The notes beneath the pieces are model-generated. The model was not told the DNA's origin, made no database searches, and was given only the letters and a program-made list of their open reading frames with translations. Positions 6,002-25,600 of a DNA stretch of 56,483 nt are shown here, one piece after another. Each line of letters starts with the position of its first letter. The first letter of the stretch is position 1. The translations under genes were made by a program, and so were the position numbers. Origin of the DNA: Simkaniaceae bacterium (GTDB lineage: Bacteria; Chlamydiota; Chlamydiia; Chlamydiales; JAJFMI01); NCBI GenBank assembly GCA_040880145.1, contig JBBDIZ010000037.1, positions 1-56,483 of the forward strand, in the 5' to 3' direction.

Positions 6002-6562
6002 ATGGAAATTCAAACCTTTACCAAATCGCATATCCATCTTGCTCACGCGCTTTGGCTTCCTTTTTTAGCCCAAGGAGGGCTCTTTATCGATGCGACAGCC
6101 GGAAACGGCTGCGATGCCCTTTTTATAGCGGAGAAAGGGCTCCACTGCCCCCTTGATCACCTTCATCTTTTTGATATTCAAGAAAAAGCTTTAGAAAACT
6201 CGAGAAAAAGGTGTCTTCCCTATCTGTCTCAAATAACCTTTCATCATAAATCTCATCTTCAGCTCCCTGATATTAGAGCCCAGCTTATCGTCTACAACCT
6301 AGGCTACCTCCCAAATGGCGGCGACAACACTTTAACAACAGAGACAGAAACCACGCTAAAAAGTGTAAAAGAGGGGATTAAACGCCTTAAAAAGGGGGGC
6401 GCACTCTCCATTACCTGTTATCCCGGGCACGAAGAAGGGGCGCGTGAAGAGCGCGCCCTCTGCTCCTTTTTCAAAAATCAACCGGATTTAAAAGTCTCCT
6501 TTTATAAAAAACAAAACCGATCGCTCGCCCCTTCCCTACTGTTTATTAGACATCTTGCATAG
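6002..6562 (+). CDS. SAM-dependent methyltransferase, YtqB/MnmM-like
   Basis: IDATAGNGCD, FDIQ, YNLGYLP, YPGHEEG motifs. Confidence 0.85.
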   Translation: MEIQTFTKSHIHLAHALWLPFLAQGGLFIDATAGNGCDALFIAEKGLHCPLDHLHLFDIQEKALENSRKRCLPYLSQITFHHKSHLQLPDIRAQLIVYNLGYLPNGGDNTLTTETETTLKSVKEGIKRLKKGGALSITCYPGHEEGAREERALCSFFKNQPDLKVSFYKKQNRSLAPSLLFIRHLA

Positions 6563-6847
6563 CCCCTACCCCTGCCCTTGCCCTTGCCCCTGCCCCTGCC
6601 CGATTAGTGTTTTTTTTGAGCCATTTTCACTAGCATGGACCCTATACTAATCAGCAGCTCACGGCCTTTGACCTATCGTTCTTCATTCACAAGTTGTAAT
6701 CGTTGACACACATCCAAAATTCCTGCGCATTCTGTAGCAGATCGTTATATTAAAAAATAGTATTGTGTGCCAGAACTTTTTCAAACTTTTCGGGCAGGGG
6801 CAAGGGCAAGGGCAAGGGCAGGGAATTGGGGTTATGCAAGATGTTTA
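6547..6847. mobile_element. 301-bp palindromic (MITE/IVS-like) cassette with nested inverted repeats
   Basis: Outer IR 6547-6566 / 6828-6847 (18/20 match); inner IR of CCYTGC hexamers 6570-6603 / 6790-6823 (33/34 match). Confidence 0.8.
6604..6744 (-). pseudogene. C-terminal fragment of a four-helix-bundle (23S rRNA IVP / Avd-like) protein
   Basis: Translates RSATECAGILDVCQRLQLVNEER*VKGRELLISIGSMLVKMAQKKH*; internal TAG, 5' part absent; family recognised from memory. Confidence 0.7.
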
Positions 6848-6912
6848 TTCAATATTGCAGTCATAATAAAAAAAATACTTTTTAATTTAAATTTTTTATA
6901 TAAAGCTGTTTG

Positions 6913-7671
6913 ATGGGTGTTAAATTATTATATGCTATTATTGTGCCAATAACTTCTCTTTTTGCATTATCCGAAACACGTCAGAAACAACTGAATTCTT
7001 ATGCGGATAAGTATTCCATAACAGCCTATTCCTCTTTCGAATATCCCCGCATCCCTCCAAATGAAGTATTAAAAACAGGCAAAAATGGAAAAGTCCTGAT
7101 TTTTACTTATGGATCTCTTTTAAATAAAGAGTCTGCAAGCCACTCTCTTTCAGATCAAGCTATGAAAACTTATTCTCCTGCTGTTGCTTTAAGCGTCAAA
7201 AGACTCTTTAATCGCTATGTTCCAACTACAAAAAAGTGGGGCGTTCCTAAAAATCCCTTAGATGTTGCGATGCTCAATCTCCTCCCTTGCAGTGAGCCAT
7301 CTGCAATAGTCAATGGAGTTATGATGTGGGTTGATGAGGAAGATTTAAAAAATTTATTAACTAGGGAGGAGGGGTACGATCTCATCCCTGTCTTTGTAAT
7401 TAGCTGGAATGAAGCAATCGATCCTCTCATAACCAATCCCCCAATCGAAGTCGCCTACACGTTTTCAGCAAGTCTAAACGCTCGAGAAGGCATTCATTAC
7501 ACTCGTCCAAATATTGATCCCGTTCCCAAATATGCGATTGCTTGTATGAAGGGAGCTGCTCAATATGGTCAAGAATATCTCAATTTTTGGCTTTACACAA
7601 CTTACCTCTCTGATGGGAAAACAAAATTTATATGCTGGAAAAATAAGCATCTGAACAAGGCTTTGAATTAA
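6913..7671 (+). CDS. Gamma-glutamylcyclotransferase-fold (GGCT/ChaC-like) protein with signal-like N-terminus
   Basis: IFTYGSLLN, VNGV, LLTREEGYD motifs. Confidence 0.65.
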   Translation: MGVKLLYAIIVPITSLFALSETRQKQLNSYADKYSITAYSSFEYPRIPPNEVLKTGKNGKVLIFTYGSLLNKESASHSLSDQAMKTYSPAVALSVKRLFNRYVPTTKKWGVPKNPLDVAMLNLLPCSEPSAIVNGVMMWVDEEDLKNLLTREEGYDLIPVFVISWNEAIDPLITNPPIEVAYTFSASLNAREGIHYTRPNIDPVPKYAIACMKGAAQYGQEYLNFWLYTTYLSDGKTKFICWKNKHLNKALN

Positions 7672-22614: not shown

Positions 22615-25600
22615 TTAATCCTCATTAAATATAAAATCATAAATACTTTTTTGATATGTTTTGCTTTGGAAAGCATGGTCCCAATAGGGCTCACCCTCTG
22701 CTTTTAATACCTTTGTTATGCGAGGCCTCGATAAGTTATCTCTAGACTTAAACAGCCTCTGCATCCGCGGAACTGGATCAAAGCCATCTGTAATTACATT
22801 ATCAGCTTCTCTAGCCAACTCAGGCGGAATGAATTTAGCGCCTGCAATGGTTAGCGCCCTGATATAGTTACGATCTTCAGGCTTCATCATAGCTAGCAGG
22901 TTGTAAGTTTTTATAGCCCCTTGGCTGTGTCCAATTAAATTGATAGTAGTGTACCCCTCTAAGATCTTTGATTCCAAGAAGTTTTTAAATGCCAGTTCTC
23001 CTTCATTTATGTATCCCTTAAGACCCAAATAACTCTCATTTATGTCATTGGACTTAGCATGAGTTGGGTTGTATAAGCAATAGACATTATATCCGCCTGT
23101 TAGATCCGATAGGTATTCTGCATTTTTAACGCAGGTTTCATAAGGCGTGTTCATGCCGTTCACGTATGCATTAAGGATTTTTTTATCGGGAAAAGGCGGC
23201 CTGTCTAGGTCAAAGCAGGCTGATCTTTCGTAGTCGAGATAGGTGCTCGGCTCGGTTGAGTATGGAGGCTCAAAGCTCATATATTGTGTTCTAGGGTATC
23301 CATTTTCCATAGGGTCTAGGGTGGGGTAATGGAAAAGGTTAACAGAGTCTCCATTTGGGAGGCAAATGCTGGAGAGCCCATAGAGGTCGTAGTGGAGGCT
23401 AGGGTTATTGAGAGCAAAGGGGTAGAGATTCGGGACGGTTTCGAATCCTTTGGGGTCGGGGGTGAAAAAGCGGCCTGTTTGGGGATCGTAGTAGCGCCTG
23501 CCAAAGAAGTAAAGGTTGGCGTCTTCATCGTATCTCTTCGATTGGTAGCCCCAAGGCGCTGTGGGCGGGGAGCTCTCTCCAAATAGGGTGTAGCGGATGG
23601 GGGTTGTGATTTTTTTTGTTTTGGGGTTGTAAAGAGTTAAAAGGTTGCCAAAAATGGAGTGCAGGGGGAGATGGACTTTGCCGTCGATTTCGATGGCGAC
23701 GGCAGCCCCAATTTCAGCGCCGCGGCCTAGGCCGAGGACGCGGAGGTGTTTGAGGTGCTTTTCCTGCAGGGTGCCGATGTCGTCTTGTTCAACATAGAGG
23801 TAGTGCTCGTTTTCGATTGGGGTCTCTTTGCTTAGGCGGCGATGGTCGGCGTCGTAGGTGTAGCGTATGGCTTTGTTGGGGGTTTCAATTTGGATGAGTC
23901 GATTAAAGGCGTCGTAGGTATAGGTGGTGGTGGTGGTATCGGTTGTGAGCGTTTTGGGGTTGCCGTTTAGGTCGTAGGTATAGGCTCCTGTGGGTGTGTC
24001 TTGGATTTGATTGAGCTCGTCGAGGTGGTAGGGTTGCTCGTCTTTTTGGGTGCGGTTATAGTGGGCGTCGTAGGCATAGGTGTGCGGGTCTTGGCCTCTT
24101 TCTTCAATGAGTTGGTCGAGTGAGTCGTAGGAATAGTTCGTTGTTTGATAATCTCCATTGATTTGGAGAGTGCGCATCTCAAGGTTATCGGTTTGAGGGT
24201 TTCGGGTGTGCAGCTCCAACGTACAGGGGGTCACATGCTGGGTTTCATAGTTATGTTTATTATAACGGCGGTGGATGTGGCCAAGGCCCATTATGGCACT
24301 TTCTTCTATCGGGTTTAGGGAGAGATCGTAGGTGTCATAGGTGTGGGTGTAGCTCGCTTGCTTTAAACGGCGTGTAATTTTCCGTAGGAAATATCCATCG
24401 TAGGTGTATTCAATGCTTGTCTCATCCGGTAGCTGCACTTCGATGCGGCGGTCATAGGCGTCATATTTGTAATTTAGAGTGTAGCCGGTTCCAAGGGTCT
24501 CCGATAAAAGGTTGCCTCGAGGATCATAGCTGCGGATTGTGGTGAGCTCATTGACTGCATCAAAGATTTGGATGGGTTTGTCGTGCAGGTCATAGGTGTA
24601 GGTGTAATCAATGGTTCCGTCTGAGGAGTATTGGGTCTTTTTTCGATCTCTTTTATCGTAGGTTGTCTCGAGGATGCATCCATCGGGTTTGATGATTTCA
24701 AGGATTTGTCCATAGGGGGTGGATCTCATTTGGGTTGTGCGCTCATCAGGAGTGCCAAAGGCTTCTGTCAGAGCCGTTTTTTGGTTGTTTTCGTTATATG
24801 CCCAGAGGGTCTTGCGCAAGTGTTCGCCGAGATGGCTTGTCTGCATAAGACAGTTTCCATTGAGGTCATAGGTGTATTCTTCTTTTTGGAGCTGTTCTCC
24901 TTCTTCGCTTAAGCGCTTTTTAAGGGCGATTCGGCCCATCGTGTCGTAGATTTCGATTTCCTTGCGGCCAATGGAGTTGGTTGTAATCGTTTTTTCAACG
25001 AGTTGGTGGTGCTCGTTTAGCGCTTTTTTATATTCGATGGTTGTAGTTTGTTTCAATGGGCTGATCGTTTGGGCGAGTCTCCCTAACGCATCGTAGTGAT
25101 AGGTAGTTATGGCTTCTTGCCCATTAATGTATTTGGTTTCGGTCTCCTTTTTGCCTTGTTCGTTGTAGGTCATTTTTTTAAGAAATATGGTTTGACCTTG
25201 CTCATCTTCATCATATTCGACTAGGGGCCGATTCAGTAAATCATATTCTATAATATGAGTCTTTGAAAGCAGCTCGGGGGCGCTTATAACTTTTTGCTCA
25301 ACGCGTCCAAGGGTGTCGTATACATATTCTGTTTTAAGTGCATGGGGTTCCCTCTCACTGAGAATTCTTCCAATGGGGTCATAGGTAATTTGTTTATGAA
25401 GGCCGAATCGATTGACTTCGCCTATCTTTTCTTCTCTGTTATAGATGTTGTATTCCCGGGTTCCATCGGGGTAGTGTTTTTCCTTCAATTGCCCGAGGGG
25501 GGTATAGCTCATTAAGGTGGTGCGGCCTTCCCGATCTGTATGGGAGGTCACGCGTCCGGCTAGGTCATAGCTATATTTTTCAAGGGTTCGATCCGGATAG

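Follow-up and report, generated by a model that had tools for sequence, protein, structure and literature searches.

The stretch of DNA considered here (the window) is contig JBBDIZ010000037.1 of the Simkaniaceae bacterium assembly GCA_040880145.1, 56,483 nt in length (C37 below). Its feature of interest is a nested palindrome, with a gene remnant inside, which an earlier note made from the letters alone had put forward as a non-autonomous mobile cassette and the best candidate there for an undescribed system. Our analysis leads to another conclusion: positions 6548-6846 are very probably a 299-bp non-autonomous, internally deleted copy, akin to a miniature inverted-repeat transposable element (MITE), of a composite IS5-family insertion sequence (IS). 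The outer repeat of the palindrome is a transposon terminal repeat, so that the window element is a deletion derivative of known (MITE-like) kind and not a new stand-alone system; the window copy in itself is ordinary transposon debris. What is apparently undescribed is the parent element, a variant which joins the protein family of 23S rRNA intervening sequences (IVSs), 23S_rRNA_IVP (below, IVP), to a DDE transposon. A literature search, supplements excepted, retrieved no report of an IS with a 23S_rRNA_IVP/four-helix-bundle gene between inverted short-repeat arrays.

The window element and its transposase-bearing relative

As listed in Table 1, the palindrome consists of an outer inverted repeat (18/20 positions matched between one arm and the reverse complement of the other) and an inner one (33/34), the latter made of CCCYTG/GGGCAR hexamers. 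With spacers of 3 nt (left) and 4 nt (right) between them, the two repeats can pair as one stem of ~55-58 bp, and the inner arms enclose a loop of 186 nt (6604-6789). The earlier description was thus exact as to match counts, loop length and the stop codon abutting the inner arm, and the ~55-bp stem that it predicted is what folding gives. As RNA, the segment 6540-6855 folds at -138.2 kcal/mol, versus -79.8 ± 5.0 kcal/mol for 100 dinucleotide-preserving shuffles, none of which was as stable (z = -11.6); the corresponding DNA value is -68.4 kcal/mol (z = -8.6). At E ≤ 1, Rfam returned nothing at the window site save sub-threshold matches to plant miRNA precursors, which are due to the sheer length of the hairpin. 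No rRNA match was obtained either there or at 20 related IVP loci, in keeping with the note's placing of the cassette outside rRNA.

The minus strand of the loop encodes RSATECAGILDV...GRELLISIGSMLVKMAQKKH, interrupted by an in-frame TAG and closed by the TAA (6604-6606) that adjoins the inner arm. With the internal stop read as X, this peptide matches positions 68-105 of the 106 of Pfam 23S_rRNA_IVP (PF05635) with an E value of 0.016 and a score of 15.9 bits (cut-off 33.8 bits). Its full-length homologue, on contig C35 of the same genome, covers positions 1-105 (E = 1.2e-21, 77.3 bits), which bears out the proposal that the peptide is a remnant of an IVP/four-helix-bundle protein. Neither the list of open reading frames (ORFs) nor the profile search revealed a transposase in the window copy, which is in this sense non-autonomous, as had been supposed.

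Relatives of the IVP gene were collected by running a 9-sequence IVP alignment against species-representative genomes; the best 80 of 478 loci were kept, a sample biased towards the chlamydia-like IVP clade. Among these 80, 23 lie in a single other chlamydial genome, G151, where the IVP genes sit in 1.1- or 1.43-kb elements whose ends have the outer repeat and the hexamer arrays of the window copy. The full element (L120:464-1894, 1,431 bp) comprises, in this order, a terminal repeat (17-26 bp), a hexamer array, a transposase gene, an IVP gene, an inverted hexamer array and the second terminal repeat, the hexamers being of the GNGCCC/CTTGCC type. Its transposase is encoded by a single ORF of 304 aa and scores 208.5 bits with NF033581 (transpos_IS5_4, cut-off 140), together with 76.5 bits for DDE_Tnp_4, 63.8 bits for DDE_Tnp_1 and 55.2 bits for HTH_Tnp_4. 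The IVP protein (127 aa; 83 bits with PF05635, 77.7 bits with TIGR02436) is encoded by a gene which overlaps the transposase 3' end by ~50 nt and is preceded by a GGGAG ribosome-binding site. The absence of a transposase, pointed out in the note, thus holds for the window copy and fails for the family, whose full-length form has an IS5-family DDE transposase.

G151 contains 137 terminal-repeat ends (none with the reversed control pattern) and ~68 copies, in which the transposase and IVP genes are variously intact, truncated or deleted; two transposase genes are intact. The commonest form there is a 1.1-kb derivative present in many copies (e.g. L103:770-1894; C34:3716-4321 and C59:27049-27654), in which transposase residues ~81-181 have been lost in frame, leaving a 207-aa ORF and an intact IVP gene; this truncated transposase might act as a regulator. 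Another genome, G154, has 51 terminal-repeat ends, mostly belonging to uniform 141-bp hairpin MITEs (L199-L202), which combine a 26-bp terminal repeat with five hexamers and a loop of 37 nt, 24 nt of it from the IS leader and 12 nt from the IVP 3' end. These fold at about -104 to -106 kcal/mol, and G154 gave no transposase match. In a plasmid collection, IS5-family transposases were matched by the transposase part alone, and no composite element was found.

The genome to which the window belongs is a 1.26-Mb assembly in 40 contigs (80 contig ends), 90% complete. A 316-nt query around the element matched 65 places in it, and the family counts at least 13 copies. A search with the 17-nt core of the outer repeat gave 25 good sites, where shuffled patterns gave 4.25 hits on average, and all 23 hexamer arrays of this type adjoin a terminal repeat of the family. 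The arms are therefore multi-copy, and the same arms flank intact IVP genes elsewhere (in G151 and in other cassettes), both as the earlier note had anticipated. Ten of the 25 ends belong to five complete copies (C37:6547, C35:6643, C16:9032, C7:38224 and C24:13175); the other 15 lie within ~200 bp of a contig end, so that element repeats account for 15 of the assembly's 80 contig ends. In contigs assembled from four metagenomic DNA runs, summed depth over 6100-7300 was several-fold higher inside the element than in its flanks, a value not to be taken as a copy number.

Aligned to the 1,431-bp element, each of the five complete copies proves to be a distinct internal deletion. The window copy retains reference positions 1431-1236 (86% identity over 196 nt; positions 3-197 of the copy) and 103-1 (79%; positions 192-303), whereas ~104-1235 are deleted. 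Comparison with the C35 copy revealed, at the deletion junction, an imperfect 9-nt direct repeat common to both parental sequences. One deletion junction is common to the C35 and C16 copies (225 nt identical across it) and another to the C24 copy and the end of C17; since these junctions occur at different loci, the shortened forms must themselves have been copied to new sites. Parts of the transposase survive within the same ends: its N-terminus in the C7 copy (HTH_Tnp_4, PF13613, E = 1e-6) and its C-terminus, along with the whole IVP gene, in the C35 copy. Copies differ in their number of hexamer units, and so do the two arms within a copy (in C16, about 5 versus 8-9 units), in a microsatellite-like manner. 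The G-rich arm of the window copy (6790-6823) and its equivalents in all copies contain at least four G3 tracts with 3-nt spacers, which is the spacing of a G-quadruplex motif.

Two layers: IS ends outside, IVP cassette inside

Transposase homologues are present in 22 of 150 genomes of the order. The plain relatives with both ends locatable measure 898-953 bp, and their transposases are 51-63% identical where the match spans the protein. They contain neither hexamers nor IVP and end in TAGAC[CT]TCTT[TG]C..., a motif which bounds plain IS5-family elements in G017, G052, G067, G111, G132, G133 and others. The outer repeat of the window family agrees with this terminal repeat at 16/17 positions, from which we conclude that it is an IS5-family terminal repeat. 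Identical AWT trinucleotides flank 10 of the 11 valid plain elements (14 pairs were listed and three dropped, as contig-edge or spurious motif pairs), and the window copy has ATT on both sides. These ends also bear on the idea that the palindrome is a Rickettsia-palindromic-element-like unit that inserts in frame into genes, an idea that goes back to the likeness to RPE-1 ends proposed in the earlier note. The element does add five codons to a gene, but the IS5-family repeat accounts for its ends, its body shows homology to an insertion sequence that encodes both a transposase and IVP, and the insertion affects the 3' end of the gene instead of lying in frame inside the coding sequence; we see next to no chance that this explanation is correct.

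The inner arms and the IVP gene form a module that is also found without a transposase. A locus was considered positive when its IVP gene was flanked by an inverted repeat scoring at least 15 points above the best shuffle. By this measure, 17 of the 22 testable IVP genes of the same order are bracketed by an inverted repeat, with arm units such as GTGCCC/CTTGCC, GGAGTTC, AATCTT, ATCAATG, AAAGGCT, CGTAAC or TGAATGGAC. In the wider set (best 80 of 478), 38 of the 77 testable loci were positive; they come from Chlamydiae, Verrucomicrobia, Coxiellaceae, Legionellaceae, other Gammaproteobacteria and Myxococcales. Over both sets, most arms are tandem repeats of 6-9-nt units. The 39 loci scored without repeat include 22 G151 copies, most of which have their left arm beyond the 450-bp search range. 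Compound arms, in which two or three hexamer arrays with unique spacers recur in inverted order on both sides, were noticed in some cassettes (L138, L061/L033, i.e. G036:C3 about 115680-116600, and L106), with inverted-repeat scores of 149-249. Our literature search found no published description of repeat-armed IVP cassettes.

Is this module mobile by itself? According to one explanation, the window element would be a stand-alone IVS-type cassette moving by a route of its own, at the RNA level or with the help of IVP, without transposase, and the outer repeat would be an extension of the stem. The abundance of transposase-free cassettes just described speaks for it, and so does the presence, in many of them, of a non-repetitive outer repeat beyond the periodic arms (L094, L131, L136 and L160). 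In addition, the 23 IVP-positive and the 22 transposase-positive genomes among the 150 of the order overlap in three cases, for 3.4 expected. We nevertheless regard this explanation as very unlikely for the window element, given that 16 of 17 positions of its outer repeat are those of a plain IS5-family end, that it aligns end to end with a transposase-bearing element and that another copy in the same genome retains transposase remnants within the same ends. As to the cassettes at large, a transposase lies beside IVP in just 23 of 110 IVP loci (22 in G151, one in the window's genome), and the IS-type terminal-repeat motif was detected at 10 of the 87 loci outside G151, versus 3 of 87 with the reversed control. 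Since IVP and transposase do not co-occur, the data do not support the idea that this IS family generally mobilises IVP cassettes in trans.

The phylogeny of IVP (70 sequences; a quick maximum-likelihood tree with midpoint rooting only, in which many forks are unresolved) places the IS-borne genes in one clade (SH-aLRT 97), nested within a clade of 14 rows (95) that comprises chlamydial cassettes whose arms are of the CTTGCC type; the arm motif tracks the IVP clade. The outer and the inner repeats each match a separate kind of element, hence our view of the nested palindrome as two layers of different origin. The outer layer is the transposon terminal repeat, the site of DDE transposase action. 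The inner hexamer arms and the IVP gene would constitute an IVS-type cassette module, and its capture by one IS5-family lineage is the simplest reading of the sequence comparisons. The window copy would have arrived by cut-and-paste or copy-in transposition with transposase supplied in trans; its interior would then have been lost by slippage at the 9-nt direct repeat, unless the copy descended from an already shortened one. It would now be inert DNA, with local effects limited to providing the upstream gene with a new C-terminus and stop codon, and any transcript that crosses it with a very stable hairpin.

A few observations do not fit easily with this scheme and have to be set against it. 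In the full element, the left array is followed by the transposase gene and then by IVP, without an array separating the genes; had a cassette simply inserted into an IS, or an IS into a cassette, another gene order would be expected. In the composite family, target-site duplication is no more than a candidate feature: identical flanking trinucleotides were found in just 20 of 34 elements, and free choice of A or T would already give 39% identical flanks among 28 of the composite copies. The identity of 79-86% to the window copy makes the G151 element a cousin of the latter rather than its true parent. In the window's own assembly, NF033581 finds just a 30-bit fragment and no intact transposase of the family; a full copy could sit in the 15 contig breaks that end in the repeat, and mobilisation in this genome is thus something that we infer. 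No empty site was encountered: no joint across the element exists in the metagenome contigs of the four DNA runs (6100-7300), and in the genomes of the same family synteny extends to the upstream gene, without the downstream gene next to it, and the sequences have diverged too far for comparison (the flanking gene has 45-49% protein identity to its relatives). Lastly, the deletion junction of the window copy was seen nowhere else, either in the genome or in the metagenome contigs. This copy may have decayed in place rather than transposed in its short form, and the term MITE therefore suits the family better than it suits the window copy.

The IVP gene itself has a history of constraint followed by decay. 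Between the C35 copy and the G151 copy L103, IVP shows 25 synonymous and 6 non-synonymous differences, for a ratio of non-synonymous to synonymous rates (dN/dS) of 0.058; the ratio for the transposase N-terminus is 0.081. These substitution patterns show that IVP was under strong purifying selection within the element during its divergence between two chlamydial lineages; the gene therefore stayed functional as the element diverged. In the window's genome this is over. The C35 copy (C35:6643-7300), the longest there, has the whole IVP domain on its minus strand, with a start codon replaced by AGG where the relative has ATG and with the same in-frame TAG as the window copy; its IVP gene is dead. 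That TAG is present in all four genome copies that retain this part of IVP. The assembly contains no intact transposase or IVP gene, and IVP is dead in it.

Premature IVP stops at nearly the same site were noted in two lineages. In G151, five copies, both intact-transposase copies among them, have TGA at codon 104 (L120/L121:1453-1761); in the window's genome, the four copies keeping this part (e.g. those of C35, C37 and C28) have TAG at codon 106. The frame past these stops is still open and conserved.

A bolder proposal is that IVP and the hexamer arrays are a working part of the transposon instead of cargo, IVP recognising the arms, as DNA or as an RNA hairpin, and aiding or regulating transposition. 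It draws on an analogy: in eukaryotic PIF/Harbinger elements, a second, DNA-binding protein brings a related DDE transposase to subterminal repeats. We hold this proposal to be unlikely. If it were true, the repeat-armed IVP cassettes and the ORF-bearing 23S IVSs would be relatives or leftovers of protein-plus-repeat modules, and a 30-year-old orphan family would gain a testable mechanism. The origin of IVSs and the role of the S23p/IVP proteins are questions that have stood since about 1990, and the G151 copies offer a natural series for testing whether transposition needs IVP and the arrays.

The insertion site and its neighbours

Table 1. Coordinates, in the window, of the element, its parts and the upstream gene.
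Feature	Position	Strand	Basis or remark
Methyltransferase-like gene, 186 aa	6002..6562	+	ORF list
ATT trinucleotide, candidate left 3-bp target-site duplication	6545..6547		ATT also at 6847-6849
Outer repeat, left arm: IS5-family terminal repeat, equivalent of the right end (IVP side) in the reference element	6547..6566	+	18/20
Inner repeat, left arm: C-rich array of five CCCYTG-type hexamers	6570..6603	+	33/34
3' remnant of the IVP gene, 46 codons (6607-6744), with in-frame TAG (6673-6675) and TAA (6604-6606)	6604..6744	-	PF05635 match
Deletion junction: ~1.13 kb of the parent missing (whole transposase gene and first two thirds of IVP)	6736..6746		Alignment to reference
Leader remnant (parent region between hexamer array and transposase start codon)	6745..6789	-	Aligns to reference ~103-59, 79%
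Inner repeat, right arm: G-rich GGGCAR hexamer array, G3-N3 spacing	6790..6823	+	33/34 vs left arm
Outer repeat, right arm: terminal repeat, equivalent of the left end (transposase side) in the reference element	6828..6847	+	
ATT trinucleotide, candidate right target-site duplication	6847..6849		Matches ATT at 6545..6547

The element lies within a 350-nt spacer between the methyltransferase-like gene and the next gene (6910-7671), both on the plus strand. Over positions 6545-6562, the terminal repeat furnishes the last five codons of the upstream gene (IRHLA) and also its TAG stop codon. Orthologues from 10 of 12 relatives align up to residues 179-184, and the two fragments of one genome up to residues 89 and 183; the two orthologues of the same family that were read to their ends are also 186 aa long, with other last residues. 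Within the element, the leader remnant contains a promoter-like TTGAAA-16-TACTAT (6784..6757, minus strand) directed into the IVP stub; such sites are not enriched, with three in the scanned region versus a mean of 2.8 in shuffled sequence.

Could the host have adopted the hairpin in RNA, to terminate, stabilise or process transcripts? This would be compatible with a transposon origin, and the very stable fold, the position between two genes of the same strand and the provision of the upstream stop codon by the element all lend it some credit. The insertion is not conserved, however, the same-family genomes G001 and G002 differing downstream of the gene; no T-tract follows the stem, and no gene for RNase III was found in the assembly with PF14622 and PF00636. 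We therefore consider such a role quite unlikely.

The RNase III gene that is lacking from the window's assembly is present in all 12 relatives, and its absence could reflect an assembly gap or an IS-linked loss. Synteny with the rnc neighbourhood of G001 breaks exactly at the end of C19 (about 24244-24454), which stops in an element copy, and five G001 genes, rnc included, have no match in the window's assembly. In G009 (L053/L034, C6 about 276914-278019) and in a close relative (L082), the RNase III gene is immediately followed by a hexamer-armed IVP cassette; as a single event among 110 IVP loci, this adjacency is probably due to chance, though curious in that the stems of IVSs are substrates of RNase III.

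Comparison with known systems

The closest plain counterparts of the parent element are IS5-family elements of intracellular bacteria (NCBIfam transpos_IS5_4), such as those of the ISCaa type. According to the passages on these elements in PMC3196728, ISCaa2 and ISCaa3 of Amoebophilus asiaticus are ~0.9-kb IS5-family elements of the ISL2 group, and ISCaa3 has a two-ORF frameshift layout. By that description, the likeness lies in the DDE transposase with HTH_Tnp_4 and DDE_Tnp_4/DDE_Tnp_1, in terminal repeats of ~17-23 bp and in the size of our plain relatives (~0.9-0.95 kb), whose transposase matches often contain one internal stop, as might be compared with ISCaa3. The parent differs from this type, as described there, in its length of 1,431 bp, its single 304-aa transposase ORF, its second gene (IVP) and its subterminal inverted hexamer arrays.

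Bacterial MITEs are non-autonomous deletion derivatives of insertion sequences. The window family resembles them in that its members are small, transposase-free and multi-copy, possess IS terminal repeats, form hairpins and are found at gene ends; the uniform 141-bp copies of G154 are a textbook case. No autonomous partner was found in the window's assembly, which is 90% complete and has 15 contig breaks in the repeat, and intact partners are in G151. Unlike usual MITEs, the complete copies of the window's genome were each deleted differently, with just two pairs having a common junction, and the window copy keeps a gene stub and has arms that include a microsatellite-like array.

IVP and the Avd protein of diversity-generating retroelements (DGRs) share a fold and a Pfam family (PF05635), which is what makes a DGR remnant, with Avd as its four-helix-bundle gene, worth mentioning. 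Reverse transcriptase (PF00078) has no match in the genome, however, there are no template/variable repeats, and the gene lies inside IS ends, so that the probability of a DGR origin is negligible.

A further likeness is to the IVSs of 23S rRNA, which lie in helix 9, 25 or 45. In the Coxiella burnetii IVS at helix 45, an inverted-repeat stem surrounds an S23p ORF, with heptamers whose number varies between strains; excision by RNase III was shown, the ORF tends to decay, and the ideas of a 'remnant of transposition' and of the 'ORF as mobility factor' are recounted, all this in the relevant passages of PMC4990558. Compared with what those passages describe, the window element has the same stem around an IVP/S23p gene, the same tandem short repeats beside the ORF and the same decay, down to a stub, so that its build is IVS-like, as the earlier note had it. 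It differs in lying between two protein-coding genes and not in rRNA (the window's assembly has no 23S gene anywhere), in being bounded by transposon terminal repeats and in having a full form with a transposase. Finally, the repeat-armed IVP cassettes share with the window family an IVP gene set between inverted arrays of 6-9-nt repeats; they lack the transposase and the IS-type terminal repeat, whereas in the window family the same module lies inside an IS.

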